Shown: positions 2 to 23,386, counted from the stretch's first letter. The stretch is DNA of 64,000 nucleotides from an uncultured Poribacteria bacterium (GCA_951813565.1 OX638351.1:1440001-1504000); one strand, 5' to 3'. Notes: a model not told the origin generated them from the sequence alone. Made by a program: numbers and translations.

Positions 2-1288
2 ACCTATTCATTTTTAAAACTTTATGTTGAACGCCCGCCTAACCCCTTAGGTCTCTTTAGTGCTGGATTGGACAAGCGGCTTGGGGGAACCCTTGAAATC
101 TATCACGGTTCTGTCCCGATGATTTCCAATGCTTCGGCGCGTAGTCTTGATAATCCATTTCTAAACCTCTTTTCAAAAATTGATCTCGTCTTTATTTTCC
201 AAGTGGTGCTAAGTTTGATAGCACTGCTTTTTGCTTATGATGCAATAGCCGGTGATCGGGAAGCAGGCACCTTACGTTTGGTTATTTCGCATCCAGTGCG
301 GCGCGGCAACATTCTGCTTGCAAAATATATTAGTGCCATGATTTGCCTGCTACTCCCCGTGCTGATGAGTCTGCTAATGGTCATGTTTCTGTTATCCATT
401 ACCGGTTCAATTCAACTAAGCGGACAGGATTTTGTTCGGATAGGCGGAATAGTACTGACAACAAGTATTTATCTGTCTGTATTTTACCTAATTGGATTGC
501 TGATTTCTACAGCGACGCGCCGCACTGCTACCTCGCTGATGTTCTGTATGTTTGTATGGGTCGTTTTGGTTCTCGTTTATCCAAACTGGAGTCGGTTTAC
601 TATAAATCCGGTGGGCGATACGCGAGCAGAAAGAACATCTACTGAAGAACATGTGAGTCAGGTTTGGGAAGAGGTTGACAGAGAAGAACAGCGATTTATA
701 GCAAACAGTCCACTTGAGGAGGACCCACCGTGGTTTAATCTAAGTTATCATGAACAAGGTCGCAGCTACGGTGATGGGCGACAAATGCTTACCTCCAAAG
801 TGAAAGCAAAATCTGAGCATTTAGTTCCTCACGTCCAAAAATATCATGAAACGATGGAAACTTTACGTATCCGTTTAGCGGAACAGACCGCTTTAATAAA
901 GAAACAGTCCTTAGATAAAACGACCTTGCGAGAAGCAAGATGGGATGAACATTTGATGAAACTCAGTCCGGTGGGTCTGTATACGTTTGCAGCTTCCGCG
1001 TGGGCAGGCACCGATCTGGATGGTATGTTTGATTATGTTGACGCTGTGCAGCAGTATCGACGTTCCACCATAAACTATTTACATGAAAAAAACGCATTCG
1101 GTAGCCGGCAATGGTTTGACACGAGCAAAGGTGAAGTAGATTGGCAGGATTTACCGCAATTTCGCTTTGAACGGGCAGATGTTTCGGAAAACGCAACGCG
1201 CGCATTCCCCGAATTGTTTTTACTGCTACTCATCAATACGGTTTTGTTCACAGTGGCGTTTATGCTATTTATCAAGGTTGAAGTTTAA
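2..1288 (+). CDS. ABC-2 type transporter permease, type A paralog (5' truncated by window edge)
   Basis: Frame is open from nt 2 (TYSFLKLYVERPPNPLGLFSAGLDK), matching the paralog at 6408. Motif YDAIAGDREAGTLRLV, multiple TM helices, large extracytoplasmic loop. Confidence 0.85.
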   Translation, partial: TYSFLKLYVERPPNPLGLFSAGLDKRLGGTLEIYHGSVPMISNASARSLDNPFLNLFSKIDLVFIFQVVLSLIALLFAYDAIAGDREAGTLRLVISHPVRRGNILLAKYISAMICLLLPVLMSLLMVMFLLSITGSIQLSGQDFVRIGGIVLTTSIYLSVFYLIGLLISTATRRTATSLMFCMFVWVVLVLVYPNWSRFTINPVGDTRAERTSTEEHVSQVWEEVDREEQRFIANSPLEEDPPWFNLSYHEQGRSYGDGRQMLTSKVKAKSEHLVPHVQKYHETMETLRIRLAEQTALIKKQSLDKTTLREARWDEHLMKLSPVGLYTFAASAWAGTDLDGMFDYVDAVQQYRRSTINYLHEKNAFGSRQWFDTSKGEVDWQDLPQFRFERADVSENATRAFPELFLLLLINTVLFTVAFMLFIKVEV

Positions 1289-1399
1289 TTGAATACATAG
1301 TCAGCGTAGGTTGGGTAGAACGCAGTGAAACCCATAACTGTCAATTTAGTGCCTGATTTCCTTGTTGGAAGGAGACTTTACCCGCCCAATTCTCTTCTT

Positions 1400-1423
1400 G
1401 TAGGAGCGAGCTCCAGCTCGCGA
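1400..1423 (+). repeat. GTAG-type REP palindrome (representative of a family recurring across the window)
   Basis: GTAG-GAGCGAGCTCCAGCTCGCGA. The same or near-identical unit occurs at ~3825, ~26898 and ~50054. Sister families: GTAGGAGGGAACTCCGATTCCCGA, GTAGGAGCGATCTCCGAATCGCGA, GTAGTCGCGCAATTCATTGCG, GTAGGTTGGGTAGA..AAACCCA. Confidence 0.8.
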
Positions 1424-1444
1424 CATCTTAGGACTGGTCGCGAG

Positions 1445-2091: not shown

Positions 2092-3627
2092 ATGATTTTT
2101 CATATTATCAAACGAGAACTCTTTGACCATATCAATAGCCTCCGATTTGTCTTAACGACGGTAATACTATTAGTCTTAATGTCTACCAATGCCTTTGTGC
2201 ATCTTCGGACACATCCCGAAAAGGTGCGTAAATATTCCAACAATATTACCAAATCTCTTGACGACTTACAATCCCGAACCGAGTTGTACACGCTGACACG
2301 AAAGGGGCCCGGCAACCTTTATAAAAGCCCATCTTCGCTTTCTTTTATCGCCGATGGAGATGATGCTTACTTACCGAGAAATATATACAGTCCAGGGTCT
2401 TGGTCGAGATCCGGTTTTGGTAGTAGAGTCAGAAGCAATTGGTGGCTAAGTTATGGCAGTGTGAACCCAGATGCAAAAGATCTCCGTCCGCAAGCAACAA
2501 AGATAGATTGGGTATTTATTATCACCTACTTGCTCTCTCTTATCCCACTCTTGTTTACATTCGACTCGTTTTCTGGTGAACGCGAACGAGGAACACTTCG
2601 ATTGTGTCTGGCAAACCCAATTTCACGCCCCACCTTATTAGTCGGTAAATTCTTGGGGACATTGATAGCCATTCTCATTCCGTTCTGTTTTGCCGTATTA
2701 CTGAATCTTGCTGTGATTTCCCTGAGTAGCTGGACGCAACTGAGTGCTATGGACTGGGGACGTTTGGGCATAATCCTGCTCATTGCAATAAGTTACGCTG
2801 GCATTTTCATCGGATTGGGGTTGATGATTTCAGCGGGGACTCGTGAACCTCGGCTCAGCTTGATTGTTGTTCTGTTGATTTGGGTAACATTCGTGGTTTT
2901 TATCCCATCAACCCTTGGAACCCTTTCCACAAAATGGATGCCGCCTTTACAAACAAACGATCAATTTAAAGCTGCCAAAGATTTAGCAATTGACGAGAAT
3001 AACACAGACTATAATGAACAAATAAAGGCAATCAAAGAGAAGAAACTTTCTGGCGCGCAAAGTAAACTTCAGCAACTGGCGAAAATGCCACGCGAAAATG
3101 TGTCCCCTGAAGATATTAAAGCCGCTGAAGAAGAATATAATTCAGTATGGCAGAAAGATGGGAATGAAGAACTACAAATCAAGTCAGAATTTATTAAAAA
3201 AGATGTAGAGATACGAGAACGTTTTAACCGATCCCATTTAGACGCACAAACCGCTCAGATTCAGAGCGCAAGAGCAATAACGCGATTTTCACCTGCAGCG
3301 ATTGTCCAATACGCGCTTGAATCGATGGCTGGGACGGGTTTTAATCGGCACTTACAATTCTTAGACAACGTGCATCTTTACACGAAACAATTTCGGCAAT
3401 TTATTGTTGAAATTGATAGATCAGACAACGAAAGCCTCCACCTTATCGGTATTCCAGAGGGCATGTCTAAGACGACGGTAACGATTGAGGCAATCCCAAA
3501 ATTTGAGGACAAAATCACCTTCAGGGACACGTTCAACTCCGCGACTTTGGATCTGTTGTTACTCGTGCTACTTCTCATGATATTTTTTTCAGGGGCATTT
3601 CTCGTCTTTTTACGGACAGAGGTCTGA
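2092..3627 (+). CDS. ABC-2 type transporter permease, type B paralog
   Basis: IKRELFDHINSLRF start, IDWVFI, FDSFSGERERGTLRL, TM helices; paralogous to 7915 and 15956 genes. Confidence 0.85.
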   Translation: MIFHIIKRELFDHINSLRFVLTTVILLVLMSTNAFVHLRTHPEKVRKYSNNITKSLDDLQSRTELYTLTRKGPGNLYKSPSSLSFIADGDDAYLPRNIYSPGSWSRSGFGSRVRSNWWLSYGSVNPDAKDLRPQATKIDWVFIITYLLSLIPLLFTFDSFSGERERGTLRLCLANPISRPTLLVGKFLGTLIAILIPFCFAVLLNLAVISLSSWTQLSAMDWGRLGIILLIAISYAGIFIGLGLMISAGTREPRLSLIVVLLIWVTFVVFIPSTLGTLSTKWMPPLQTNDQFKAAKDLAIDENNTDYNEQIKAIKEKKLSGAQSKLQQLAKMPRENVSPEDIKAAEEEYNSVWQKDGNEELQIKSEFIKKDVEIRERFNRSHLDAQTAQIQSARAITRFSPAAIVQYALESMAGTGFNRHLQFLDNVHLYTKQFRQFIVEIDRSDNESLHLIGIPEGMSKTTVTIEAIPKFEDKITFRDTFNSATLDLLLLVLLLMIFFSGAFLVFLRTEV

Positions 3628-3675
3628 TCTTATACCATTTCTAATTGATCGCCTTTCATTAACAAAAAACACGTT

Positions 3676-3782
3676 TATAGTGAACTTTGAAATTATTGGG
3701 ACACTTTGATAAACTTATCTTGGAAAGATAATAGACAATAGAAGTTTATCAAAGTGTCCCAGTAATTATAGGTTTTACTATA
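3676..3782. mobile_element. Long palindromic MITE-like element with TATAGT..ACTATA ends
   Basis: Arms ggacactttgataaactt / aagtttatcaaagtgtcc. Ends tatagtgaa / ttttactata recur at ~9530-9763, ~60848-60921 and ~61756-61893. Confidence 0.5.
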
Positions 3783-3946
3783 ATATGAATCACAAATCCT
3801 GTTACTTTCAGCACGTCTCTTCTTGTAGGAGCGAGCTCCAGCTCGCGACTGTTAGACTTTTAATTTATATGGAATAGCAGTTGTAAGCACAACCAACAGG
3901 TCATAGAAACTCAAAGATGCCCACAAACTAACAAAAGGAGCATATT

Positions 3947-4402
3947 ATGAAAAAGTATAAACGCGTTCTTATTCTGATTATTGTTTTCCTGATTATTGCA
4001 GGGGTTAGCTGCACCACGATGATCACAGATGAAATAAATATTGTGGATAGAATAACACATGATCACTACAAAGTTGATCCCAAAGGGCAATTAATCGTTA
4101 ATGCTGAGATTGGCGAGGTTTCTGTCGAGAAAACAGATCACCTCACGTCTGATATTGATTTTGATATCAAAAAGGAGTGGAAATCGGGGATGATGTTTCA
4201 ACCGAATTCGAAGCGATGGATTAAGGATATGCTCAAAGATTTGGAAGTCAAAATTAAACGCGACCCGCCAGATGTACGGCTTGACGTTAAATTCAAACGC
4301 GGAAAACAACATTGGAAAAAGGGATTAAAATGGTTGACGGTTAACATTGATCTTAAAGTGCCGCGTCAATATAAGGTCGTTTCGAATGCCCCATCTAAGT
4401 GA
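3947..4402 (+). CDS. Putative lipoprotein, DUF4097/adhesin-like beta-strand region
   Basis: AAGGAG RBS, basic N-terminus, hydrophobic stretch, lipobox-like GVSC; LIVNAEIGEVSVE and VNIDLKVP resemble the DUF4097 N-terminus. Confidence 0.55.
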   Translation: MKKYKRVLILIIVFLIIAGVSCTTMITDEINIVDRITHDHYKVDPKGQLIVNAEIGEVSVEKTDHLTSDIDFDIKKEWKSGMMFQPNSKRWIKDMLKDLEVKIKRDPPDVRLDVKFKRGKQHWKKGLKWLTVNIDLKVPRQYKVVSNAPSK

Positions 4403-4739
4403 ACAAGAATATGCATAAATAACTGATGTTGAATGTCTTAGTAGCGCGTATCTCCTAAATCAGATTTTGTTTGGTTTGCTCTGTTTTATCTAACGCTTCT
4501 TCATATTGTAGGGGCGGGACCCTGTGCCCGCCCATTGTTCCATCTTCAAGACATGGCGAGGCACCAAATCAACGGTATGAATGCCTGTTGGCATTCCCCG
4601 GAGACCTCGCCCTACAATGATTTATGAGACAGGTTGTAGTAATAATTTAAATTTTACAATTTTTTTCAAGTTATGCACCCTTTTCACCTTCAAATTGTAT
4701 CATGTATAGTCGTAAACCAATTTATTGTGGAGAACTCTG

Positions 4740-5579
4740 ATGGAAAAAGACGATATTGAACTTATTCACAACATTTTGTCCGGCGACGAGACAGCGTTTA
4801 ATGTCTTAGTCCAAAAATACCAAAAAAGTATTCACGCTATCGCGTGGCAGAGAGTTGGAGATTTTCACGTCGCCGAAGAAATTACCCAAGATGTCTTCCT
4901 ACAGGCATATAATAAACTGTCTACGCTAAAAGACCCAAATAAGTTTGCCAGATGGCTTTATGTAATTACCAAGCGGCGCTGCGCTCGCTGGCTCCAAAGA
5001 GAAAAGCCTACAATGCAATCGTTAGAAGTCGTTGATGAGGCAACTCTGGAGAAATCCGCTTTTACACATTATGTTGCAGAGCAGCGTGAGGAAGCGGCAA
5101 CCGAGCATCGCCGCGAAGTTGTTAAAAAGCTTTTGGAAAAACTGCCGGATAGCCAACGGACAGTGGTGGCACTCTATTACTTTAGGGATATGACATCCGA
5201 AGCGATTAGCAAATTTCTGGGCGTATCTATCAACACGATTAAGAGTAGACTCAGACCTGCACGACAACGTTTGAGGGAGGAAAAAATGATCACAGTTGAA
5301 TGTTATGAGCAAGACAAATTTAAAGGGAAGAAAATAACCATTCTTCAAGATATTGAGGACCTTCAAGATAGTCTGGAACGTTCAGGGTTTGAAAACCGTA
5401 TCTCGTCTATCCGTATAATTCAAAAAGGGGATTTTCCACGCAGTGGTGGGAAAGTTGTGTTTCACGAACACCCCGATTTTGCAGGTATTTTTTTACCTAT
5501 CCACATGGAACCGGAGATATCTATGAAAGAGATACCTAATTATCCTCATTCCATCCTCTCAATTAAGATTGAAGGTTGA
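4740..5579 (+). CDS. ECF RNA polymerase sigma factor fused to a C-terminal beta/gamma-crystallin domain
   Basis: Sigma region 2 (AEEITQDVFLQAY, FARWLY) and region 4 (SINTIKSRL). C-terminus has Greek-key signatures CYEQDKFKG, ENRISSIRI, FHEHPDFAG. Confidence 0.8.
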   Translation: MEKDDIELIHNILSGDETAFNVLVQKYQKSIHAIAWQRVGDFHVAEEITQDVFLQAYNKLSTLKDPNKFARWLYVITKRRCARWLQREKPTMQSLEVVDEATLEKSAFTHYVAEQREEAATEHRREVVKKLLEKLPDSQRTVVALYYFRDMTSEAISKFLGVSINTIKSRLRPARQRLREEKMITVECYEQDKFKGKKITILQDIEDLQDSLERSGFENRISSIRIIQKGDFPRSGGKVVFHEHPDFAGIFLPIHMEPEISMKEIPNYPHSILSIKIEG

Positions 5580-6407
5580 GCACCCTACTGCTTTGTCAAC
5601 ATATTATTCTCCGTCACGATTCGGAGACCGCTCCTACCGATGGAACGCTTATGGTAGGAGGGAACTCCGATTCCTGACTACTACTTTCAAGACCCATCAA
5701 TTATCACTTGACGAGGCACTACGGTGAATCTAAGAATATGGAGTTTATAGCGGATTCTACAATTAACTGGACATCTGAGCTGTCCGAGGGAACTCCGATT
5801 CCCGACTATTAGTGGTTTCGTCGCGATTCGGAGATCGCTCCTACAGAATATATGTGAACTTATTTACATAATTTACGAGTTGTGCTAAATAACCATTTGT
5901 AGAACTTTATTTCACAAAAGAAAATGTTTGTAAGTCATTATCATATATTTATATGTTCTTCAGTCCCGCCAAATGCCATAAGCGCATTTGGCGTTGATTT
6001 GGTAGGGGCGATATGTTTATAGAAAATGATTGGACGAGCACTCTTTAGTCCCGCCAAATGCCGGACGGGGAATGCCAAAAGGCATTCATACCCGGTGAAT
6101 GACTAAAGACGAATGCGCTTTTGGCATTCGCCATGATTCATACCGTTGATTTCTTGATTTGGCGCATTTGGCGTTGATTTGGTAGGGACGATATGTTTAT
6201 AGCACAAATGCAAATATATGTGAAAACCAACAAAACAAAATGTTAACTGGCACAAGTCGTATAATTTACTATAATATATTTATTTTGTCCAAACAATCCA
6301 AAAGTGCATCCGAAAATGTGTATAAATGATTCATTCCTATTTTCTGAATGATGGAGGTCTGTCCAGAAATTTGACATATTAGTCTATTCACACCAGAAAA
6401 CTGTATA

Positions 6408-7913
6408 ATGCTAACACTCATCCGCCGAGAACTTCTTGACAACCTAATGACATTCCGATTTGCTGCAGCAGTCTTCATTATGCTGTTGCTTGTAGTTGCC
6501 AACACCTTTGTGCTTATCAATGATTATGAGAGTCGATTAGCCGGCCATAATACCTCTGTCAATATGCATAAGCGACAACTGCAAGAGACTAAAACCTATT
6601 CGGCAGGTGAAGTTCGCGTTGACCGTCCGCCAAACCCATTGAGCATTTTTAATGTAGGGTTTGATAAACAACTTGGAAACGAAGCTCGTATAACCCACCA
6701 ATTTGTGCCGTCGCTGTGGGATGCTGGCATGCACGGCTCCTCTAATCCGTTTATGGATATGTTTGCTTCAATGGATATTATTTTTATTTTTCAGGTGATC
6801 CTTAGCTTGTTGGCATTGATATTTGCTTACGATGCACTTGCGGGAGAATACGAAAATGGAACTTTGCGCTTAGTCTTGACACATCCTGTTAGGCGAGGTA
6901 AAATATTGGTTGCTAAATACGTTAGTGCAATGCTCTGCCTCATTGTGCCGTTGTTGATAAGTTTGCTCCTCTCGCTTATTTTACTCACGACATCCACATC
7001 CATCGCTCTAAACACCGATGATTTTCTTCGCATCGGTGGAATCATCTTAACGTCCATTGTTTATCTTTCCGTATTCTATCTGATGGGACTGCTGATTTCT
7101 GCGGTAACCCGTAGGACGAGTACAGCATTGATGTTGTCTATGTTTGTTTGGGGATTTTTAGTATTGGTTTATCCAAATATGATTCTTGCCGTGATACCTC
7201 AACACGAGGCACCGCAGGAACGCAAGACATCCGCTTACAGTAAAATTGAACAGATGTGGAAGGAATTCGACAAAGAACGCAAGCACTACCTTGCTACTGA
7301 CGATTTTCCAGGGGAAGATTGGGGTTATGAACTAAGGGGTTGGGGAACACGTTCCAATTTTATTTTATTGGGTAATCCTCACACACTTTTCTATAAATGT
7401 CGTAGTATGATGAATTTTCAAGGGTTTGGTGAGGAAGATGAACCCAAGATTCCTCACGCACGGAAACATTTCCGCTACCTCGGTCCGAGAATTGTTGATA
7501 CCGCAGATAAGACATGGCTCGTCCGAAAGCCTGCACTTGATGACATCTTTATTCGACCTGCCAATAAAGAGAGAATCTGGTTGAAACTCTCACCAGTGGG
7601 ACTATACGATGCCGCAACACAAGCGTGGGCAGGCACTGACGTACACGGTGTTAGAGATTTTTTCGACGCTGCAAGACAATATAGAAAGCAGGTAATTGAC
7701 TATTTCTACGATACAGATGTGTTTGGATCGCGACAATGGTTCTCATCGGACAAAGGGGCTGCTGATTGGAGTGATTTACCACAATTTACTTATCAAAGGG
7801 TTGATAGCAACACAAATGCAAAGCGCGCACTGCCAGATGTATGCTTACTGCTGATGATGAATGTCGTTCTGTTTATCATTATATTTCTGATCTTCGTCAA
7901 AAGTGAGGTGTAG
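6408..7913 (+). CDS. ABC-2 type transporter permease, type A paralog
   Basis: DRPPNPLSIF, SNPF, YDALAGEYENGTLRLV, TM helices. Confidence 0.9.
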   Translation: MLTLIRRELLDNLMTFRFAAAVFIMLLLVVANTFVLINDYESRLAGHNTSVNMHKRQLQETKTYSAGEVRVDRPPNPLSIFNVGFDKQLGNEARITHQFVPSLWDAGMHGSSNPFMDMFASMDIIFIFQVILSLLALIFAYDALAGEYENGTLRLVLTHPVRRGKILVAKYVSAMLCLIVPLLISLLLSLILLTTSTSIALNTDDFLRIGGIILTSIVYLSVFYLMGLLISAVTRRTSTALMLSMFVWGFLVLVYPNMILAVIPQHEAPQERKTSAYSKIEQMWKEFDKERKHYLATDDFPGEDWGYELRGWGTRSNFILLGNPHTLFYKCRSMMNFQGFGEEDEPKIPHARKHFRYLGPRIVDTADKTWLVRKPALDDIFIRPANKERIWLKLSPVGLYDAATQAWAGTDVHGVRDFFDAARQYRKQVIDYFYDTDVFGSRQWFSSDKGAADWSDLPQFTYQRVDSNTNAKRALPDVCLLLMMNVVLFIIIFLIFVKSEV

Positions 7914-7914
7914 A

Positions 7915-9327
7915 ATGGTTTGGCATATAGCAAAACGCGAACTCTACGATAACCTGAATAGCCTCAGATTTGCACTTGCTACTGTGCTGCTACTGAGTTT
8001 GATGTTAACAAATGCAGTTGTCCATCTTCGGGAACATCCAGAGCGGGTGAAACAGTATCAAAAAGGTGTCTCCGAATACCAGAATGAATTACAGTCTCAT
8101 GCTGACAACAGTCTATATGACCTTGCACAAAAGGGACCTGGTAATCTATACAAAAAACTATCCAATCTTCGTTTCTGTGCAGAGGGTGGTGAGACGTTTT
8201 TGTCAGAATACGCTGACGGAGGATACAACCGATGGAGTACCGACACATTAAAAAGTTTCTGGATCTTAGCGTATCCCACGTCAATACCTAATCGAAAAAA
8301 CGTTCGCCCAATCGTCACCAAAGTAGATTGGGGCTTTATAATTGGGTATGTATTAAGTCTTGTTGCACTCCTGTTTACTTTCGATTCGATTTCAGGAGAA
8401 CGCGAGCGTGGCACGCTGCGACTGACGTTGGCGAATTCGATCCCACGACACACCGTGCTAATTGGCAAGTTCTTGGGAGCATTGATAAGTATTAGCATTC
8501 CGTTCACGCTTTCGATATTGATGAACCTGTTGGTGATCTCTACTTCAAGTGATGTCCACCTCGGCGCTGAAGCATGGGAGCGTTTAGGTATCATTTTCTG
8601 TATCGCTCTCTTGTATACTTGCCTTTTTCTTGCGTTGGGTCTGCTCGTGTCGGCCCGAGTGAAACGGAGCGCAGTAAGTCTCGTGGTCCTGCTATTGGTT
8701 TGGGTCGTCCTTGTGGTTTTTATGCCGAGTACCCTCGCTTCTATTGCAGGTGGATCTCCATCATCAGGCCCTACACTTGACTTCTCGGAACGTTCAGAAA
8801 AACTACATGATGAACTATCAAACGAATATGACTCTAATCGATATAAAGAACCTGAGGATTCACTCAAACGGATACAGATGGATGGTGAGTATGTCATCAA
8901 AGACGCAGAACAGCAAGAACAGTTACACGCAGAACGCTTAAATCAGCGAGTCGAACAAGTAAACCGAGCACGCGCCATAACTCGTTTTTCTCCGGTTACG
9001 ATTGTGCAGCATCTCCTTGAATCCTTTGCAGGAACTGGGTTTGAGAGACATCTCCAATTTTTAGAGAATGTTAAATCTTACGCACGAGAGTTTCGGATAT
9101 TCATTGTTGATGCAGATAGAGCTGATCCAGATAGTCTCCATATCCTTGGTTTTCGTACAGGCATGTCGCAGAAACCTGTCAACCCAGAAGTTGTTCCGAT
9201 GTTTGAAGATACTCTTAATCTCAGTAAAGACTTCAATACCGCAGCGATGGATATGCTGTTGTTAACGATGTTTGTCGTAGTGCTTCTATCGGGTGCCTAT
9301 CTCGCGTTTGTCCGTGTTGAGATTTGA
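7915..9327 (+). CDS. ABC-2 type transporter permease, type B paralog
   Basis: ATG 1 nt after the upstream stop, with GAGGTG RBS. MVWHIAKRE, VDWGFI, FDSISGERERGTLRL. Confidence 0.9.
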   Translation: MVWHIAKRELYDNLNSLRFALATVLLLSLMLTNAVVHLREHPERVKQYQKGVSEYQNELQSHADNSLYDLAQKGPGNLYKKLSNLRFCAEGGETFLSEYADGGYNRWSTDTLKSFWILAYPTSIPNRKNVRPIVTKVDWGFIIGYVLSLVALLFTFDSISGERERGTLRLTLANSIPRHTVLIGKFLGALISISIPFTLSILMNLLVISTSSDVHLGAEAWERLGIIFCIALLYTCLFLALGLLVSARVKRSAVSLVVLLLVWVVLVVFMPSTLASIAGGSPSSGPTLDFSERSEKLHDELSNEYDSNRYKEPEDSLKRIQMDGEYVIKDAEQQEQLHAERLNQRVEQVNRARAITRFSPVTIVQHLLESFAGTGFERHLQFLENVKSYAREFRIFIVDADRADPDSLHILGFRTGMSQKPVNPEVVPMFEDTLNLSKDFNTAAMDMLLLTMFVVVLLSGAYLAFVRVEI

Positions 9328-9953
9328 TCGTGATGAAACCTATATAAAGTGAATTCGATAATGATTTGAAATATATCCGTAGGTTGGGATGAGCAAGTGA
9401 AACTAATACCTCTTGTGGGAGGCGTTTTCAACGCCGATACCTTATTCAGTCGGGCTTACAAAGCCCTCCCACAAGAAATAATATGCTAATATGGACTTTG
9501 AGTGGTCTCAATCCATCCTAAAATTATTTATAGTGAAATCTAAAATTACCTGGACAGTTCTTTATAGGTTTGATGCGTTTGTAGTCGCGCAATTCATTGC
9601 GCCTCGGACATTAACCGGTAGGCGGTGAATGCCATACGGGGAATGCCTAAATGGCATTCATACCCGCCAAATGCCTAAATGGCATTTGTAGCGTTGATTT
9701 CTTGATTTGGAGGTTTCCTAACCTCGCCTATTGCAACGTATAATTAATTGTAAAATTCACTATAACTCATGTTATATATGTAAGGAGCCTCAATAACCTA
9801 ACGACCTTCGCTACACAGTAGCATTTCTGACCGTAACGTTTTATTTGAACTTTTCACAAAAAAGTGTGTGTAACCTATTAGATGTCCTGAAAACCGGACT
9901 TATCACAGAAATTTAGATTAGAAACCGTATAACCTATAAATCATTTCAAAAAA

Positions 9954-9983
9954 TGCAACCTTTATACCCTTAAAACGCGTCTA
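9954..9983 (+). promoter_or_regulatory. Putative ECF sigma promoter upstream of the ABC ATPase
   Basis: TGCAACC-N17-CGTCTA, nearly identical to motifs at 20263-20291 and 23357-23386. Confidence 0.7.
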
Positions 9984-10047
9984 TGCAACATAAGCCAATG
10001 TCACTTTAATGTCCAGAATAGAACACAAGATTTCAAGGAGGTACAAA

Positions 10048-10782
10048 ATGTTAGAAACCCGTGAACTAACAAAAGTCTATAACGAGAACGTTTTAGCTGT
10101 CAACAAATTGAACATGAAAGTCGAAGATGGCGAAATCTATGTCGTCCTCGGTGCGAACGGTGCAGGCAAAAGCACGACCATATCCATGCTGCTCAACTTC
10201 ATTGAACCGACAAGCGGCACTGCCCTTGTTGGGGACATTGAAATTCCAAAGTTCCCACTGGAAGCGAAAAAGCATCTTGCCTACGTTTCTGAGAACGTTG
10301 AACTTTACCGGAATTTTACGGCACGCCAAAACTTATCCTTTTTTGCAAAACTTGGAGGGCGAAAGAAAGTCTCGAATGCGGAACTGGATCAGACACTTGG
10401 CAGGGTTGGCTTAGCTGAGGAAGCGTTTACGCGGCGCGTCAAAACTTTCTCTAAAGGAATGCGGCAACGTCTCGGCATCGCAATTGCAATCATGAAGGAC
10501 GCACAAGCTGTCCTGCTTGATGAACCGACTTCAGGGCTTGATCCGAAGGGTGGCGCCGATTTCTTAAACCTTCTGCGTCAACTCAAAGAGGAAGGAAAAG
10601 CTATCTTTATGTCTACTCACGACATCTTTCGCGCGAAGGAGATCGCTGACAGGATAGGAATCCTTGTGCAAGGTAACCTTGAGCGAGAGTTAACGCGTGA
10701 AGAGATTCAAAATGAAAATCTTGAGGAATTGTATCTGCACTATGTTGCTGGATACGAACCCGAAGAAGACGCGACTGAGTAA
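10048..10782 (+). CDS. ABC transporter ATP-binding protein
   Basis: AAGGAGG RBS; Walker A GANGAGKS, signature FSKGMRQR, Walker B LLDEPTSGLD, H-loop STH. Confidence 0.95.
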   Translation: MLETRELTKVYNENVLAVNKLNMKVEDGEIYVVLGANGAGKSTTISMLLNFIEPTSGTALVGDIEIPKFPLEAKKHLAYVSENVELYRNFTARQNLSFFAKLGGRKKVSNAELDQTLGRVGLAEEAFTRRVKTFSKGMRQRLGIAIAIMKDAQAVLLDEPTSGLDPKGGADFLNLLRQLKEEGKAIFMSTHDIFRAKEIADRIGILVQGNLERELTREEIQNENLEELYLHYVAGYEPEEDATE

Positions 10783-10869
10783 AACTTAGTGCATTCATTA
10801 GTTCAGTTATTGTATAATTTTATTGTGAGGCGGGATACTGTGCCCGCCATCGTTCATTGCAAGACGTTA

Positions 10870-11021
10870 ACGTGAGTTTGTTAATAGATATATGAACTTC
10901 ATTTTGCATAAAATCTTATTCTCATAAGCCCGGTAGGTGCGGTTTCCCGACGAATGCCACAGGCGCATTTGGCGTTGATTCACCGCACCGAGTCCAAAAA
11001 TCTGATTTATCAAACTCCCGT
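10870..11021. mobile_element. 152-bp MITE with 9-bp target-site duplication
   Basis: TIR ACGTGAGTTTGTTAA / TTATCAAACTCCCGT, flanked by AAGACGTTA at 10861-10869 and 11022-11030. A related element lies at ~1634-1982. Confidence 0.7.
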
Positions 11022-11102
11022 AAGACGTTAGTTTAGGCGGGGCACAGAGACCCCGCTCTACAATTGTTAATTAAGGTATGATACACACTAAAAGGAAAAA
11101 CC

Positions 11103-13355: not shown

Positions 13356-13364
13356 AAAACAATT

Positions 13365-13520
13365 TAGGACTTACGCACAAACGGTAGGCGGGGAATGCCA
13401 AAAGGCATTCATACCGTTGATTTGGCGTTTTGTAAACGCGCTGATAATTCAAAATTCTGCTGAAATTACACCATTTTAGCCATAATTATTCCAAAAATCG
13501 TGAAAATCGCGTAAGTCCTA
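13365..13520. mobile_element. MITE with 5-bp TSD
   Basis: TIR TAGGACTTACGC / GCGTAAGTCCTA flanked by CAATT on both sides; carries an internal interrupted REP. Confidence 0.6.
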
Positions 13521-13538
13521 CAATTCATGGAGATTAAA

Positions 13539-14945: not shown

Positions 14946-15083
14946 ACAATGTTTCCCGTAGTCGCGCAATTCATAGCGCCTCTTTTTAACGCCTTTTAAG
15001 TGTGGTTTCACACTTTATATATTCAAAACCGAAAATTGAATGGCTCTGGTAAACACAATAGGCAGGACTTGTTTTTCTCCTGC

Positions 15084-15404
15084 CTACGCTTCGCTTTTCT
15101 TAACTTCGGTATTCTGTGGGGCGTACTTTAAAAATTCCAAATCCCTTAGATGTGGCTCAACTTCCGCCAGCTGTGAACGGATTTCCTGCAAATCCGCACC
15201 CATCTGCTTTAAATTAGATTCAACTTGCCTATAGGTTTGTTTCGAAGATTGTCTCAAGAAATACGATGCTCCCTGCCATATACCTAAAAACACAACAACT
15301 GCTATGCCACTAATAACAACCGTCGTAATAGTGGACATAACAGCGACGTATTTGAGTGTCAAAAAGAGCATCACCCCAAGTAATGTCAGTATTAGAAACG
15401 GCAT
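15084..15404 (-). CDS. Small membrane protein (2 TM plus coiled coil)
   Basis: Two hydrophobic segments then heptad repeats; 12 nt from the upstream gene. Confidence 0.6.
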   Translation of the reverse strand: MPFLILTLLGVMLFLTLKYVAVMSTITTVVISGIAVVVFLGIWQGASYFLRQSSKQTYRQVESNLKQMGADLQEIRSQLAEVEPHLRDLEFLKYAPQNTEVKKSEA

Positions 15405-15416
15405 ACAATTCCCCCT

Positions 15417-15626
15417 TTACTCGTTACCTTTAGCAATTTGGATAAGCTGTCTAACCTCTTTTTTCAGTGAGATTATTTCTTCCTGCATGTGGTTTACATG
15501 TTCCTGCAGGGCATCTATCTCACGTTGAGATGCTCCCTTTTCCAAACCTTCTGCCTTTTTAGCGTAGGAAAAAGACATCCAGGTGCACACAAGTATTCCA
15601 GCTACAATAATCAATGCGATTTCCAT
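15417..15626 (-). CDS. Small membrane-anchored coiled-coil protein
   Basis: GGAGG RBS before ATG 15626; N-terminal TM, EIDALQEHVNHMQEEIISLKKEV heptads. Confidence 0.6.
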   Translation of the reverse strand: MEIALIIVAGILVCTWMSFSYAKKAEGLEKGASQREIDALQEHVNHMQEEIISLKKEVRQLIQIAKGNE

Positions 15627-15955
15627 TTTCAATTCCTCCAAATTTTTGTTGTGTTACAAAATAGAGACTGCAACGCGCGAAAGGATAGTAAAAAATGGAA
15701 AATCGGACGAAATTAATTGAGTGCGGTTCATAAATAGCCGATGTTAATATGCGCTTAAAGGTAGTAGGCACGCTCCGCGTGCCGTCCTCTACGCTAAGTG
15801 AGTCGTTACCGTTCAACCCTGTTCCGGTAAAAGCCTCAAGAAGGTGTTGGACAATCGCTACAAAAGAGATGTGAGTGAAGGAACGGGTTGATTGATAGAT
15901 ATAAAACTGCTTATCCGTACTCTTAAATTAGATGATAGGGTGCCTTACGTCATAT

Positions 15956-17416
15956 CTACTGCAAATCGCTTTTTAAAAAAGAAACCAGTGCGATAATAAA
16001 GAATAGCAGGTTAAACAGCACCAGCAACATGACTTGGGTTAACACGCTCCGATAAGAGATCTGCTCCTTAAAAACTGGCACAGCATCTGGATCCACCGGT
16101 TTCTGAGATAAGCCTTCTTTTACAGGATAGATATGTAGGCTTTTGGGATCACCCTGATCTTCTGTTTTGATGAAGTCTATGAACGTTTGACGATACCGAC
16201 GCGCCTGTTTAACAAAATTCATATAACTAACAATACCTGTATTTGCAAACCCTTCCATCGCATATTGGAAAGTCGCTATCGGAGAGATTTGGGTAAGGTC
16301 GCGAGCAAGCTGGACCTGCCTAAACTGCTGATCAATATGTCCATCATTAAAACGGGTTTTTGTCTCCATTTCTTTGGTGAGGTAAGTTGCCCAAAGAAGC
16401 GTTGCTTCGGGATTCTCAACAGAAGCTGCCTTGCTTAACTTAGAGGGTATATCTCCTGACCTACCAAAAGGATGGTATTCATCTCCAAGTTGCCTTAATT
16501 GTGCTTCTCGCTGCATGGACACCTCGTCAACCGAGGGAATAGGATTTATGTTGCCGACAAAAGTGCCAAGTAGACTCGGAAAAACAAACGCTAAGCAGAC
16601 CCAGGTGAGTAAAAGCCATACCAAACTTGTTATTGGATTTGAAACACGACTTGAGAAAAAGAGACCAAGGAAGATAAAAATAGAGATGTGTAACGCAAAC
16701 AATCCTATCATTCCCAAAATACATAGCCAATCCCTCGACTCAAACGGAATATTTTTTGAAATAAGGATAACCAGCAAGTTCATCAAGATGCCAATCATAA
16801 GCGGTACCATAAGTGTCACAAATGCACCGAGGTATTTCCCCAACAACACCTGCCCGCGCGATACTGTATTGGACATCATCAAACTTAGTGTCCCGCTCGC
16901 TCGTTCCCCAGCAATAGCATCAAAAGTGAATAAAATCGCAAAAAAACTCATCAGGATACCGATGAAAACCCAGTCGATTTTGATCCGTCGCATCCCAGTA
17001 CCGCCTGTATTTTGCAAAGGGTACTCTAATGTCCACGGGGCTTTCCACGCATAATCTTCAAATTCCTCATAACCGCTTCGACTGGCTGTTCCGGTATTCT
17101 GCATTTTGACAGAACGCGGAATTAATTTATCTGTCCCATCGGCACAAAATGTCAACCCGGTAGGGTGTCTTAGAATCTCACCAGGTCCTATCAGTGCTAA
17201 TTCCGCCAAACCCTTACCCGCTTGTTCTTTGATATAATCTCTATTTTGTTGTACATGGCGGTTGTAAGTATTGATTTGTGTTGTATAACCATCGCCGCCA
17301 AGACTATATATCAGTGCATTCGCCATAAACAGCACAGGCAGAAGGATGATCATCAAGGAAAATCGGAGCGTCGTGAGATTGTGGTATATCTCTTTCCTCG
17401 CAATGTGCCAAACCAT
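15956..17416 (-). CDS. ABC-2 type transporter permease, type B paralog
   Basis: MVWHIARKE, IDWVFI, FDAIAGERASGTLSL. Confidence 0.9.
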   Translation of the reverse strand: MVWHIARKEIYHNLTTLRFSLMIILLPVLFMANALIYSLGGDGYTTQINTYNRHVQQNRDYIKEQAGKGLAELALIGPGEILRHPTGLTFCADGTDKLIPRSVKMQNTGTASRSGYEEFEDYAWKAPWTLEYPLQNTGGTGMRRIKIDWVFIGILMSFFAILFTFDAIAGERASGTLSLMMSNTVSRGQVLLGKYLGAFVTLMVPLMIGILMNLLVILISKNIPFESRDWLCILGMIGLFALHISIFIFLGLFFSSRVSNPITSLVWLLLTWVCLAFVFPSLLGTFVGNINPIPSVDEVSMQREAQLRQLGDEYHPFGRSGDIPSKLSKAASVENPEATLLWATYLTKEMETKTRFNDGHIDQQFRQVQLARDLTQISPIATFQYAMEGFANTGIVSYMNFVKQARRYRQTFIDFIKTEDQGDPKSLHIYPVKEGLSQKPVDPDAVPVFKEQISYRSVLTQVMLLVLFNLLFFIIALVSFLKSDLQ

Positions 17417-17434: not shown

Positions 17435-18958
17435 TCAACTCAAATCATATCGTAGAAAGGATACATAAGCGACCATGAATAAGACGATATTCCATGCCAA
17501 TAGAATCAAAATATCCATCGACGCACGGGACAAGCTTTCGGAAAGGGAAAGCCGTTGATGTTGGAAAACGGGCAGATCGGTTAACTCAGCATCTCCCTTG
17601 TCATTAGAAAACCACGCGCGCGAAGAAAATGCCTTTTTATCTTTTAAATACTCAACAATCTCACGCTTATAGTTTCTTGAACCCGCAATAAAATCGTTAT
17701 AACGCTGTCGGTCTGTGCCTGCTATTGTGCCAACAGCGAAGTGATATGTGTCTGCAAAGGAGATACGGGAGAGAGCATCAGCAAACTTAGAATTCTTCTC
17801 TCGTGCCTCAGCGGGTTCTTTGAGAATTTCTTCCGCTCTATCCGCATATTCAACCCGAAGTTGCTCTTGATAGCCTAAAATTTCTTGGAAGATAGAAGTA
17901 TTGGCTTGGGCGACATTTGTGACACTATAACTCTCTGTTAAGAAATAACCTCCGAACATAGAACCACTGCCAACTCCTCTTGATGATGCCCCCGGTTCCC
18001 AAATAATTGACTTTTGCAGATCTTCGTAGCCTCTCTGTCTGCGATAGGCATCCCGATCTTTTTTAAATTGTTCCCATACATCAGCAGCAGGCTGGATCAA
18101 CGACATTTCAGATTTCACTGGATGCGGCGGAAATTTTTCCACTCCAAATGCCACGACATTTGAATGAACACTTGTGAGGATCACCCAAATAAACATGGAA
18201 AGGATCAGCGTTGTTGCGGCTTGTTTTGTCCAAACAGACAAGGCAAGTCCTAAAAGATACCACGTTGACACGTACAGCAGCGAAACACCGAATATCGTCA
18301 TGATGTGTAATATGTCGTTTCCATCAAAGACGATAACTGGTGAAGAAAACGCGAGCAACAGTGCCACAATTAAACTCACCAAAACAATTGGAAACAGAGA
18401 CAGCATCCCACCGAGATATTTCCCAAACACTATCGTATCTCTCGGTATCGCATTAGATAACACAAGTTTCAGTGTGCCATCTTCTCTTTCACCCGAAATC
18501 GTGTTGTAGGCAAACAGAATCGCTAACGCGCTCAGCACGATCTTGAAGATGAAAACCACATCCACGGTTAGGAACATCGCAAGGAATGGATTATCTGAAC
18601 CCCGTTTTTGCGTTGGTGCTTCCCAAATAGGGAAGTTGAATTCAAAGATAGGCTTTCCCAACTCAACGGTGACCGTATTGGCACCAGCGTTCTCCGCACC
18701 CACGTTAAAGATGCTAAACGGATTCGGCTTGCGGTGTGCCTTCGGCTTGATTTTGGAATAGAGTTCCCATTCCTGTGCTTCCGTCTCTGCCTCTCGGACA
18801 GCAGTGTTATATCCCGCCAAACGTTTTTCGTAGTCGTCTACCTGAACAAATACTGCGACAGCAGTTGAAAGCAGACACACAATAAGCCCAATCATGAATC
18901 GGGATGTTAAGATATTTGAGACGAATTCCCGTTGGATAATCAGCCAAAGTGTGGACAT
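17435..18958 (-). CDS. ABC-2 type transporter permease, type A paralog
   Basis: RKPNPFSIFNVG, DNPFL, YNTISGEREDGTLKLV. Confidence 0.9.
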   Translation of the reverse strand: MSTLWLIIQREFVSNILTSRFMIGLIVCLLSTAVAVFVQVDDYEKRLAGYNTAVREAETEAQEWELYSKIKPKAHRKPNPFSIFNVGAENAGANTVTVELGKPIFEFNFPIWEAPTQKRGSDNPFLAMFLTVDVVFIFKIVLSALAILFAYNTISGEREDGTLKLVLSNAIPRDTIVFGKYLGGMLSLFPIVLVSLIVALLLAFSSPVIVFDGNDILHIMTIFGVSLLYVSTWYLLGLALSVWTKQAATTLILSMFIWVILTSVHSNVVAFGVEKFPPHPVKSEMSLIQPAADVWEQFKKDRDAYRRQRGYEDLQKSIIWEPGASSRGVGSGSMFGGYFLTESYSVTNVAQANTSIFQEILGYQEQLRVEYADRAEEILKEPAEAREKNSKFADALSRISFADTYHFAVGTIAGTDRQRYNDFIAGSRNYKREIVEYLKDKKAFSSRAWFSNDKGDAELTDLPVFQHQRLSLSESLSRASMDILILLAWNIVLFMVAYVSFLRYDLS

Positions 18959-20082: not shown

Positions 20083-20262
20083 AATTACTTCTCCTTTTAC
20101 GTGCATTTTATGGTAGATTTGAATTTATTTGGACAGTATCGCTCTGTGAATCAACGCTGAATGCACATAAGGCATTCAGCGTTGATTCACAGGAAATGTG
20201 TCCAATTATTTCCATATTTCACCATTAAATGGATTTTAACACTAAAATTGGCTTATGACGTT

Positions 20263-20291
20263 AAGTCGCGTTTTAAAGGAAAAAGGTTGCA
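20263..20291 (-). promoter_or_regulatory. Putative ECF sigma promoter upstream of 20082 gene and permease pair
   Basis: Minus strand TGCAACC-N16-CGACTT. Confidence 0.7.
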
Positions 20292-20340
20292 TAAAATGAA
20301 TTTTTGGGAAAATTTTATACTCGGTAGGTAAGGAGACAGA

Positions 20341-23322
20341 TTATTGGTTGTTTCCCAATATTCCTGACCAGATCGCACGTCGCGCATCCGTGCTGTCAGG
20401 TTTTTGGGTAATGGTAATATTAATACTCGCTGCTTCAAGAGGCGGTTTTCCGGGCATGCCGCCTAATGTAGTTGGTAGGGTAATTTTTTCACCTTTTCGC
20501 TCAAGGGTTAACTCTACGACATCACCTGATTTCCAGTCTTTTGCCGATCTTCTGACGTCTTCAAATGTCTTCACGGGTGTGTCGTTGATCGCAATAAGTT
20601 TGTCACCGTCTTGATACTTGGGCGATCGAAAAATAATCAGACTCCCCTCCTTCGTATTCCTGAGTAAACGAATGGACAACATCTCATTGAGAATATACCT
20701 AAGGTTCGGTAGTTTTTCACCAAATTCTATCTGTGCATCTACACCCGCGTTTTTAAGGTATTCTTCTAAAGGTAATCGCTCTGTGCCTGTTACATATTTA
20801 TTGAAAAATGATTCAAAATCTTTACCTGCAATTTGGCTGACGATCCTGATGACATCATTAATAGCGAACACGTTATCGGTAAGCCCAAATTCCTTATACA
20901 TCTGCTTCATCACATCGTCTAAGCTACTCCGATTTCGCGTTAGCGCGCGAATCTCTAAATCTAAAGCCATCGCAACGAGACTCCCACCGTCATAAACAAG
21001 TTCTCGGTTGGCAAATTTGTTTTTGCCTGCCTCTCGGATAGAACGTTTCCCTTGTTCTGATAAATATGATTCCGACGAACGTTTAAGATTTATAAGAAAA
21101 TCGTTTTCAGAAATAAGTCCAAGGCGAGTACAAACAACATTTGAATAATACGAAGTGAACCCCTCGGTAAACCAATATTCCTGTTTACCAGCCTCAGTGA
21201 ACCAATTTTCCGACTTGGCAAAATAAATGGCTTTTCCATTCCACATATAGCAAACCACGCCTGCCACTAAATTAGCCCAAAAACTTCTATTCGTTTCGTC
21301 TAATTCGCCTCCGATCAGAGCGGTGATGCTACGTCCTGATGCACCACCGCTGCGATATCCTTCCGCACCATAAGGGTTAGCGACAAACAGCATCCTGTCT
21401 TTCGGGGTACCCCCAAATACTTCTGTATACGCTTTCAGGATTGCTTCAATAGTACGCTGTATTTTATCCATAGATGCTTTAAAGCGTCCACCAATGGCAA
21501 GCACTATCTCCGCATCTCCAGATTTTACTATTCGTTCACAATGTTCACCAAGCACAAGATACGCATTCATCAAGTCGTCCTGATCTTTACAAACAAAACG
21601 ATGGTCTTCAGGTTCAATCCGCTCCCAAGCCGTTGAAACATGCCAATTATCAGGGACGTTAACTTGCAATTCAATATCTTTCACCTTACCCACGATAAAT
21701 AGGGCATATCCAGTCCAAAAGATGCAATCTTCTTGGGTGTACGGTGCTTCATCCCTGCCTGTAGGCCAATCCCGTTCATCATGGTTTAACAACGCTTTGT
21801 AGTACAACTTCACAGGTAAGTCATCCCGCGTTTCAACAACCCATTGTGTTTTGTCAATCTCTTCAACAGGTAACGTTTCTCCATTTACATCAGTAACTGT
21901 CAAGTCGCGAAGATAACGAGCATATCCATCATACAACCATTCAGTATCAAAGCGGCTCATGGATAACATCAGATGTTTTTTGCCGCTTTTAGCACCACTG
22001 CCAATTTTCGGTGTTAGGATACACTTGACTTCTGCTATGCGCGGTTCATCAGCATCTATTGTGACTTCATATCTTGCCGATGCAAGTTCCATCTGGTTTT
22101 CAAGATTCACTGGTTTACTGAAATTCCTGATGACGTGCCACTTCTCAAAAACTGCTTCGTCACGATAGCTATTTTGCCATCTGTATGTCCACTGCGTCCC
22201 GACTTGCACAGGGAGGTATTCTCCACCCTCAAGCGGAACTTCGTATTTAAACAATTCAGCTTCAGTTACGACACCGTTGGCGTGTTCATATCGCATCTTA
22301 ACAAGTCCAACACCCTTAGCGAACCATAAATAACGGGTGCCGTTAACAAGTGCATTCCGCAGTTCAGCATTTGTGCCTTCTACATCAGCATTTGTAAAAA
22401 CGGTTTTATGCTTCAGACATTTTTCAAATACCGCCGCCGACACTTCTACCCTTTCATAACCTTCCAAAGTCGTTTTTGCTTTTGATTTCCAAGCACCTTT
22501 TTGCTCCCAACTTTTTCCGATATTCATAGGAAACCTAAAAAGGTTAATCTTACCGTGGCTGACATAATGTAACAACATATACATTGGTGATGGATCACCA
22601 TCATCATGACCTCTTGTGCCAATACCGGAAGATGTGAAAACCTTATCGGTTCGGTTTAGACGGAAACCACCTTCTGCTAAATGCTCGCCACTTTCCGTTA
22701 CCGCAGTCGCTTGAATGCTAATGTATCGTGGTTCGCCTCTCAATAAATTAGGACTCAAATTTTCGCGAATCATTGACTCCTCCTTCTCCAGTCTCTTCCG
22801 TGCACGGTATAACCGACTCTTTACCGTGTTCAGCGATATGTCTAAACGCGCACTCACCTCTTCACAGGTCAAACCTTTGAAATAGTGTAGGACAATTACG
22901 GAACGTTCAGACTTTGGTAGTTTTTGGAGGAGATTTTCCACGACTTCGCGTAACCTGCTTGTTGATGCTTGTGTCTGCTCTTCTTCAAGATAGCGGACGT
23001 AGAACAGCCTTTCCAGTTCTGATTTTGGCATCGCATCTATAGATGGCATTGCAAGTGGCTTTTTTCGTATCCACTCTACGCACCGACGTTTTGCTATTAC
23101 GCGAAGCCACCCTAAAAAACGTTTGGGGTCTCGTAACGTTGGCAGGGAGTTAAAAGCATGGATAAAGGTGTCCTGCGTAACTTCTTGCGCTGCATGGAAG
23201 TCGCCGATTTCTTGCCATGCAAGAGAGTGAACCCACTTTTGATGCTTTTGCACGAGCGCAGTGAAAGCGTACTCATCTCCTGACAAGATGCGCTGAATCA
23301 GACCAACATCGTCATTTTTCAT
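20341..23322 (-). CDS. ECF sigma factor fused to beta-rich domain, M61 (glycyl aminopeptidase)-like domain lacking HEXXH, and PDZ
   Basis: Sigma regions 2/4 in aa ~1-185; M61-like WFTEGFTSYY and YDGGSLVAMALDLEIR..SLDDVMK; PDZ GDKLIAINDTPV; no TM helix evident. Confidence 0.8.
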   Translation of the reverse strand: MKNDDVGLIQRILSGDEYAFTALVQKHQKWVHSLAWQEIGDFHAAQEVTQDTFIHAFNSLPTLRDPKRFLGWLRVIAKRRCVEWIRKKPLAMPSIDAMPKSELERLFYVRYLEEEQTQASTSRLREVVENLLQKLPKSERSVIVLHYFKGLTCEEVSARLDISLNTVKSRLYRARKRLEKEESMIRENLSPNLLRGEPRYISIQATAVTESGEHLAEGGFRLNRTDKVFTSSGIGTRGHDDGDPSPMYMLLHYVSHGKINLFRFPMNIGKSWEQKGAWKSKAKTTLEGYERVEVSAAVFEKCLKHKTVFTNADVEGTNAELRNALVNGTRYLWFAKGVGLVKMRYEHANGVVTEAELFKYEVPLEGGEYLPVQVGTQWTYRWQNSYRDEAVFEKWHVIRNFSKPVNLENQMELASARYEVTIDADEPRIAEVKCILTPKIGSGAKSGKKHLMLSMSRFDTEWLYDGYARYLRDLTVTDVNGETLPVEEIDKTQWVVETRDDLPVKLYYKALLNHDERDWPTGRDEAPYTQEDCIFWTGYALFIVGKVKDIELQVNVPDNWHVSTAWERIEPEDHRFVCKDQDDLMNAYLVLGEHCERIVKSGDAEIVLAIGGRFKASMDKIQRTIEAILKAYTEVFGGTPKDRMLFVANPYGAEGYRSGGASGRSITALIGGELDETNRSFWANLVAGVVCYMWNGKAIYFAKSENWFTEAGKQEYWFTEGFTSYYSNVVCTRLGLISENDFLINLKRSSESYLSEQGKRSIREAGKNKFANRELVYDGGSLVAMALDLEIRALTRNRSSLDDVMKQMYKEFGLTDNVFAINDVIRIVSQIAGKDFESFFNKYVTGTERLPLEEYLKNAGVDAQIEFGEKLPNLRYILNEMLSIRLLRNTKEGSLIIFRSPKYQDGDKLIAINDTPVKTFEDVRRSAKDWKSGDVVELTLERKGEKITLPTTLGGMPGKPPLEAASINITITQKPDSTDARRAIWSGILGNNQ

Positions 23323-23356
23323 GCCAATCCTCCAAAATAAATTGCCTTATAGTCTA

Positions 23357-23386
23357 TAGTCGTGTTTTAAGGGAGTAAAGGTTGCA
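23357..23386 (-). promoter_or_regulatory. Putative autoregulatory ECF promoter of the sigma-M61-PDZ gene
   Basis: Minus strand TGCAACC-N17-CGACTA, ~35 nt upstream of the ATG. Confidence 0.7.

Follow-up and report, generated by a model that had tools for sequence, protein, structure and literature searches.

The 64,000-nucleotide stretch of an uncultured Poribacteria genome analysed here (the window) encodes what we read, with a probability of about 0.64, as a TolC-dependent exporter in which a common core would serve many alternative membrane modules and the tips of the permease stalks would set specificity. The reading draws on sequence comparisons and structural models. Because one core set, made up of an ABC ATPase, an outer-membrane channel and a bridging protein, occurs together with 8 to ~55 permease genes, these parts likely form a single envelope-spanning export pump.

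The host genome is one contig of 5.43 Mb. Domain assignments come from a Pfam-type scan of 19 window ORFs. The genes stand where an earlier sequence-only reading of the same stretch had placed them, except that the gene of permease A1 begins before the window. The features of the locus are as follows.

2..1288, plus strand: permease A1 (type V/ABC-2 membrane subunit, DUF3526), 491 aa; the gene starts 187 bp upstream of the window
2092..3627, plus strand: permease B1, partner of A1, 511 aa (domain match, tree)
3947..4402, plus strand: predicted lipoprotein, 151 aa, with a lipobox-like VSC
4655..4705, plus strand: ECF-type promoter-like motif, TGCACC...GTATC, ~66 bp upstream of ECF1
4725..5579, plus strand: ECF1, a soluble ECF sigma that ends in a beta/gamma-crystallin-like domain slightly below the Pfam cut-off; probable start 4740
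6408..7913, plus strand: permease A2, 501 aa, with a predicted NosY-like membrane fold, a long periplasmic helical stalk and a variable beta tip
7915..9327, plus strand: permease B2, partner of A2 (domain match, tree)
9953..9999, plus strand: ECF-type promoter-like motif, TGCAACC-N17-CGTC, upstream of the core operon
10048..10782, plus strand: the single cognate ABC ATPase (ABC_tran match), 244 aa
11103..13355, plus strand: candidate non-canonical periplasmic adaptor, 750 aa, with hairpin, Ig-like domains, NEW3 and a C-terminal TM helix
13527..14945, plus strand: cognate TolC-family outer-membrane channel (OEP/TolC match), 472 aa
15084..15641, minus strand: two small proteins of 106 aa and ~68 aa with hydrophobic N-termini, downstream of B3
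15956..17416, minus strand: permease B3, partner of A3 (domain match, tree)
17435..18958, minus strand: permease A3, 507 aa
19183..20106, minus strand: secreted or anchored 307-aa protein containing carboxypeptidase-regulatory-like domains; an ECF-type motif lies upstream, near 20290
20341..23322, minus strand: ECF2, a soluble ECF sigma of 993 aa with a fused M61 aminopeptidase-like domain without HExxH and a weak PDZ match
23341..23387, minus strand: ECF-type promoter-like motif upstream of ECF2

Long gaps in the locus (1289-2091, 3628-3946, 5580-6407, 9328-10008 and others; the A1-B1 gap is 803 bp) are packed with several families of short palindromic repeats. Their interpretation as an array was rejected, the elements being short palindromes. 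Rfam gave no matches in the window or in the 20 kb upstream of it, and no RNA dataset was listed as carrying the region 6000-15900. The 151-aa predicted lipoprotein was assigned to no family in Pfam and NCBIfam searches. Beside the locus, at 23588-25520, the gene of an N6/N4 DNA methyltransferase precedes that of a 229-aa protein assigned to no family, and the two may form a restriction-modification pair; ~12 kb upstream of the window lies the gene of a 3868-aa secreted-looking protein (genome 1416371-1427977, minus strand).

Permease modules

All six window permeases hit ABC2_membrane_2, with E-values of 3e-24 to 8e-34; the DUF3526 match exceeds its cut-off in 5/6. Two permeases of a further type, C, stand in tandem just upstream of the window (L001:16343-19374) and bring the family permeases of the host genome to eight, all at this locus: three A-B pairs and two C. 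The first C gene is frameshifted; one run (97% of words) agrees with the frameshift and the contigs of three other runs carry a form one base longer, so the frameshift looks strain-specific. Directly upstream of the C permeases are three tandem paralogues (L001:13012-16229; 302, 355 and 328 aa), secreted-looking and with coiled-coil-like C-termini, which may possibly be cargo or unrelated.

The earlier reading had divided the window permeases into two sequence types, always ordered A then B, and had proposed a phylogeny to separate them. Identity among the window permeases is 30-47% for A-A and B-B comparisons and 22-30% for A-B. In a tree of 93 sequences, taken from the window, from the single-contig Poribacteria genome G117 and from seven Aminicenantes-like loci, A, B and C form separate clades (support 0.998, 0.993 and 1.0). 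A is followed by B in 77/81 evaluable cases at 62 related loci, and C by B in 0/42 cases. These data bear out both the types and their order.

Distances among A permeases mirror those among their B partners (r=0.97 for 22 adjacent pairs; 0/2000 permutations as high). Free mixing of A and B is thereby rejected, and as partners co-diverge, the swappable unit is likely a fixed A-B pair, with the caveat that gene linkage alone also predicts A-B co-divergence. The idea of interchangeable permease pairs consequently stands in part: a core shared by the pairs is backed by the genomic data given below, but A and B co-diverge as fixed pairs and an unpaired type C exists. Type C likely works as a homodimer. 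An unbroken tandem array of four A-B pairs is found in G117 (L150:4057-16772), with no ATPase or ECF nearby. A plasmid search with A2 gave no match at E 1e-8.

A type V membrane fold with a coupling helix is predicted for the permease by the A2 model (pLDDT 88.5, pTM 0.84). Its closest solved fold is NosY (Z 27.2, rmsd 2.7, 252 aligned), ahead of ABCA4 (Z 20.0), ABCG (19.5-19.8) and MacB (7.9 over 184 residues), and NosY is also the best solved relative by sequence (E 6e-15). Added to this fold in the model are long periplasmic helices, one of 51 residues (~75 Å), with a small beta-sheet at the tip; no solved structure matched the stalk in the fold search of the A2 model. The stalk tip is predicted to differ between paralogues. 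Conservation peaks in the coupling helix (65-69% within A or B, 46-49% between types) and is lowest in the second periplasmic stalk (26-28% within A or B), in line with the conserved transmembrane cores and divergent loops noticed at first reading. The window permeases are under purifying selection, with a median dN/dS of 0.09-0.13 for orthologues of seven of them (3 to 11 comparisons each, window copies only) versus 0.02 for the ATPase. Stalk dN/dS among orthologues is 0.06-0.20, which led us to reject both a general decay of the stalk and its fast positive selection.

The proposed shared core and its candidate adaptor

The ATPase, adaptor and TolC genes are contiguous in 59/62 Poribacteria loci. 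Two of the three exceptions are contig ends; the third is the closest relative (L002 in genome G151), in which the 10 kb upstream of the adaptor contain no ATPase, the gene (99%) lying elsewhere in the genome. The permeases around the core differ in number, type and order among the 62 loci. Among 151 Poribacteria genomes, which include kin that are not independent of each other, 102 have both the adaptor and family permeases (best E up to 1e-25), 44 have neither, five keep family permeases without a detected adaptor, and none has the adaptor only. The gene association, on whose conservation the earlier reading had staked the shared core, is conserved. The permease search scored at most ~15 candidates per genome, which makes its permease counts lower bounds. 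Two full adaptor copies occur in twelve genomes; both copies sit in a full core in three assemblies that are represented twice among the loci.

The single-contig genomes G117 and G133 have 52 and 56 permease matches, each with one adaptor, one cognate TolC and one cognate ATPase (95%; next best 35-36%), and all four parts are missing from G024 and G044, which are also single contigs. A survey of G117 in 20 stretches, which covered all its permeases, found 51 of them (21 A, 21 B, 9 C) in 17 clusters, with the sole cognate ATPase at the core. At least 440 aa are encoded by 48/51, one further permease is cut by a stretch border, and one A-B pair adjoins two fused ABC exporters. The genome-wide count of permeases versus cognate ATPases is therefore eight to one in the host and 51 to one in G117, where, as a genomic pattern, one ATPase gene stands for several unlinked membrane modules. 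Each cognate part is single in the host genome, as the earlier reading had it for the locus: one ATPase, one TolC and one copy of the anchored 750-aa protein.

The ATPase most likely starts at 10048, preceded by a GGAGG site. Its Walker A, Walker B with the catalytic Glu, ABC-2-type signature variant, D-loop and H-loop appear intact by sequence reading, and the Q-loop position is Glu (YVSEN). The protein is 86-98% identical across 59 Poribacteria loci; the next-closest ATPase in the host genome is only 37% identical, and the next ATPases score up to 149 bits versus 533 for the cognate one. No second cognate ATPase was found in the 25 kb upstream of the window or elsewhere in the genome. An own ATPase for each pair just outside the window, which would have spoken against a shared one, was thus looked for and rejected. 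The next TolC of the host is 24% identical to the cognate TolC; the host's other TolC adjoins its own AcrA/MacA-like gene and ATPase, as judged from the sequence start only.

Outside Poribacteria, the best 80 of 405 confirmed metagenome stretches, all close to one Aminicenantes-like protein, never show more than one cognate ATPase, with as many as seven permeases next to it, and a divergent TolC is present in 34/35 of those loci that reach 5 kb upstream. TolC is linked to the adaptor in two distant lineages, in differing orientations.

The 750-aa protein comprises a signal-like N-terminus, an alpha-hairpin (residues 40-119), five predicted Ig-like domains, the last of them NEW3, and a C-terminal TM helix. 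Its model has a hairpin (40-79/86-119), five beta-sandwiches and a C-terminal helix (pLDDT 80.5), with a domain arrangement that is uncertain because pTM is 0.45. As nothing but the signal-like segment and a linker of low confidence comes before the hairpin and the five beta-sandwiches all lie downstream of it, N-terminal half-domains are lacking. The C-terminal TM helix is present in 98/99 full-length relatives and a hydrophobic N-terminus in 91/99, and the model predicts anchoring by the C-terminus with the hairpin at the far end. There are 428 relatives among 50%-identity representatives, many of ~500 aa. Named relatives belong to Aminicenantes, Handelsmanbacteria, Acidobacteriota and B38; clusters of look-alikes are most frequent in Aminicenantota and Zixiibacteriota, and two homologues carry the source name 'AcrA (membrane-fusion protein)'.

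A profile of the adaptor family, built from 90 distant relatives, matches the hairpins of 6VEJ (Pseudomonas RND membrane fusion protein, E 1e-5), MacA, MexJ, MexA, ZneB and AcrA, and also NEW3-type domains of glycosidases. Family members have an RLS-type tip (R 45/90, L 82/90, S/T 73/90) at +4/+11 spacing, the same spacing as R119, L123 and S130 of MexA (PMC4446572). The tip of the window protein itself is altered (Asn, Met, Thr and a two-residue insertion). In a Pfam scan of the 90 members, NEW3 was the only match, with no adaptor family and no lipoyl or beta-barrel domain. The predicted domain build, a hairpin without flanking lipoyl or beta-barrel halves, puts the 750-aa protein outside the classical adaptor family (MFP/HlyD/AcrA/MacA). 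The remark that the locus has no classical HlyD/AcrA adaptor was thus true, but the family of the 750-aa protein does bear an adaptor hairpin. The RLS motif on this efflux-adaptor hairpin favours the adaptor role proposed for the protein, and we suggest that it is likely the missing adaptor and works like a classical one. The altered tip of the window protein and the lack of a Pfam adaptor family in the 90 members count against the exporter reading.

A complex prediction of three copies of TolC residues 156-472 with the adaptor tip (residues 58-106) scored 0.01 versus a mark of 0.32, the partner fold being uncertain and the controls unfolded. With the complete adaptor model as query, a fold search returned nothing beyond generic Ig chains (TM-score by query length up to 0.19). 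Most aligned Poribacteria sequences have a longer adaptor tip and a longer second TolC turn than the Aminicenantes-like set, a paired lengthening that is suggestive only.

ECF sigma factors and promoter motifs

The two ECF sigmas with fused domains that had been noticed in the locus are present, and both consist of sigma2-sigma4 and a fused domain with no adjacent anti-sigma. A TM helix after the sigma domain, which many members of the ECF family carry, is absent from both of them and from those directly upstream of G117 A-B pairs. The host genome has 29 close family members and G117 has 74, with highly mixed fused domains (M61 and S9 peptidase, AhpC/TSA, beta-clamp, BNR repeats, HTH). In G117 a domain-fused ECF lies upstream of 13/24 permease runs (same strand, within 4.5 kb) versus 0.57 expected, an enrichment overstated by the uniform null and by duplicated cassettes that are not independent; in the other 11/24 runs the 4.5 kb upstream hold no ECF.

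Four window genes, those of ECF1, ECF2, the 307-aa protein and the ATPase, have an ECF-type motif in front of them. For the window permeases, a search of the nearest 250 bp found no promoter motif. Upstream of the ATPase, the ECF-type motif occurs in 25/54 loci and a sigma70-like motif instead in 20/54. The ECF-type motif also lies upstream of 17/29 family ECFs versus 29/2851 long ORFs; both patterns were defined after inspection of the same sequences.

HExxH is missing from the M61 domain of ECF2 and from 2/6 aligned homologues and retained in the other four, and its loss in ECF2 fits a binding role. ECF-M61 fusions exist with and without HExxH (window 20341-23322; L153:11211-16618), and in G117 a motif-less fusion adjoins a sigma-less copy that keeps HExxH. 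G117 also has ECF sigmas fused to a DNA polymerase III beta-clamp (L156:10258-11625 and L159:13784-15511, with two and three Pfam domains); one such fusion heads an A-B pair. ECF sigmas that carry regulatory extensions are already known as a class (ECF41, ECF42, ECF57, ECF238; PMC8999054), which likewise has sigma2-sigma4 and a fused domain without a separate anti-sigma. The Poribacteria proteins differ from this class in their expansion, in their very mixed domains and in heading permease cassettes. By analogy we infer that the domain-fused ECF sigmas may sense ligands.

Mechanism, alternatives and relation to known systems

In the exporter that we propose, a core of one ATPase, the hairpin-plus-Ig adaptor and TolC would be loaded with a fixed A-B pair or, likely, with a C homodimer. 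The adaptor would oligomerise and dock tip-to-tip on TolC, an ATPase dimer would power whichever membrane module binds, and the stalk tips would set cargo specificity. Cargo would probably be captured from the periplasm or the membrane surface, as in MacB, and domain-fused ECF sigmas may turn on individual cassettes, plus the core in some lineages. Our best guess at the cargo, a weak one, is envelope-active peptides or lipophilic compounds; the fused peptidase, redoxin and BNR domains and the small envelope neighbours hint weakly at envelope stress or at removal of peptides or toxins. More tentatively, at slightly worse than even odds, the system could be a plug-in platform in which one core, including a new kind of adaptor, serves up to ~50 scattered type V subunits, many of them as sensor-plus-module cassettes. 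A domain-fused ECF would then detect a cue and supply the matching cargo-binding pair to the common core.

The shared core could be real and the machine an importer or a NosDFY-like mechanical device whose job is not net export; its stalks would then bind ligands from outside (metals, metallophores, nutrients) or act on periplasmic partners. We consider this unlikely. It gains from NosY being the best solved relative (E 6e-15; Z 27.2), which counts against the exporter reading. The NosY complex is a mechanical device, not a translocator; NosY itself is a 275-aa homodimer without long stalks that acts on NosD in copper delivery, and NosDFY is not known to have a TolC or an adaptor. NosY is the closest to our permeases in membrane fold and sequence, but neither NosD nor other nos families are found among the 19 window ORFs scanned. 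Caulobacter has DUF3526 proteins, presumably ZnuH and ZnuI. Its ZnuGHI, the one characterised operon of this make-up in a genome with DUF3526, resembles our system in combining one ATPase with two ABC-2 permeases, and as zinc starvation induces znuGHI and a TonB receptor adjoins it, it points to uptake; this Zur-repressed, putative uptake system counts against the exporter reading as a precedent, and the available part of its description has one pair and mentions no TolC or adaptor (PMC4176598). Dozens of specificity modules per ATPase also resemble multitask importers such as those of Bacillus subtilis MsmX, in which several membrane modules with genes at other sites depend on a single ATPase (PMC7658222). 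MsmX systems, however, are importers with solute-binding proteins that have only the ATPase in common, and few systems share it, whereas here a three-part core appears to be shared by up to ~50 subunits. Against both variants, the core always has TolC and an efflux-type hairpin. The permeases have a type V fold, not that of a type I importer, and neither a TonB receptor nor any solute-binding protein family was found among the window ORFs scanned.

It is improbable that only core-adjacent permeases use the core and that distant cassettes use other ATPases, bind ligands or signal for their ECFs without an ATPase, or are decaying duplicates. G117 cassettes up to megabases away from the core would fit such independence, as would the five genomes with permeases and no detected adaptor, the G117 pair beside two fused ABC exporters and a few broken copies. 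Yet the next-best ATPases (35-38%) are also found in genomes without the whole system, the coupling helix is the part best conserved across types (46-49%), 48/51 G117 copies are full length, and purifying selection acts on the window copies, the only ones measured. We give a very low probability to the view that the 750-aa protein belongs with the ordinary accessory or surface proteins of the COG1470/NEW3 type, that its hairpin is a generic coiled coil and that TolC is a mere neighbour served by a classical adaptor elsewhere. NEW3 is the sole Pfam family in the 90 members, shorter COG1470 clusters are distant look-alikes (score 0.77), the hairpin matches solved adaptors with modest E-values only (1e-5 to 0.14), and the whole model finds only generic Ig chains (TM-score up to 0.19). 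On the other hand, once NEW3-type glycosidase domains are set aside, the best matches among solved structures are adaptor hairpins, with the alignment at the tip motif, two homologues bear the AcrA name, TolC linkage recurs in two distant lineages with differing orientations, and the host's other TolC appears, from its sequence start only, to have an AcrA/MacA-like gene and an ATPase of its own.

The exporter that we favour likely works like MacAB-TolC or YbhFSR but belongs to neither. With MacAB-TolC it shares an ABC ATPase, an adaptor with an RLS-type hairpin, TolC and a membrane subunit with a large periplasmic part. However, MacB is a type VII transporter and aligns with A2 at Z 7.9 (184 residues) versus 27.2 for NosY, and the window permeases fall in ABC-2 Pfam families, not in MacB/FtsX, and do not have the four-helix MacB/FtsX fold. 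MacAB-TolC has one transporter per pump, the Poribacteria system dozens. YbhG, the adaptor of YbhFSR, is of the classical type. YbhF has two fused ATPase domains, in contrast to the single 244-aa domain of the window ATPase, and YbhFSR has one permease pair only; the likeness would lie in two different membrane subunits with one ATPase gene in a tripartite efflux system (PMC8277102, PMC13739795). MacA is built of lipoyl, beta-barrel and membrane-proximal domains and is anchored at its N-terminus (PMC13328181); the 750-aa candidate adaptor has a signal-like N-terminus and a C-terminal TM helix.

A 2021 review limits tripartite assemblies to ABC transporters of types IV and VII and files YbhFSR with MacB (PMC8277102). 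Adaptors are described as a hairpin with lipoyl, beta-barrel and membrane-proximal domains in PMC4446572 and PMC13328181, and the sections consulted of the latter do not mention Ig-like adaptors. Literature searches covering few subscription papers found no description of DUF3526, only Thermococcus secretome work for NEW3/COG1470 with an ABC transporter, and nothing on such a system for Poribacteria sigma, ABC and TolC proteins.

The permeases represent a large gene-family expansion in Poribacteria, gained or lost as a block, with no function described in the literature searched. Poribacteria are best known as sponge symbionts. If our reading is true, the known repertoire would gain a type V tripartite pump, together with an adaptor in which the hairpin alone is retained. 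With some 20 natural A-B pairs in a single genome, there would be a direct route to test how one ATPase couples to many membrane subunits and where cargo specificity lies. Overall, the shared-energiser principle, known from importers, would extend to a whole trans-envelope exporter.
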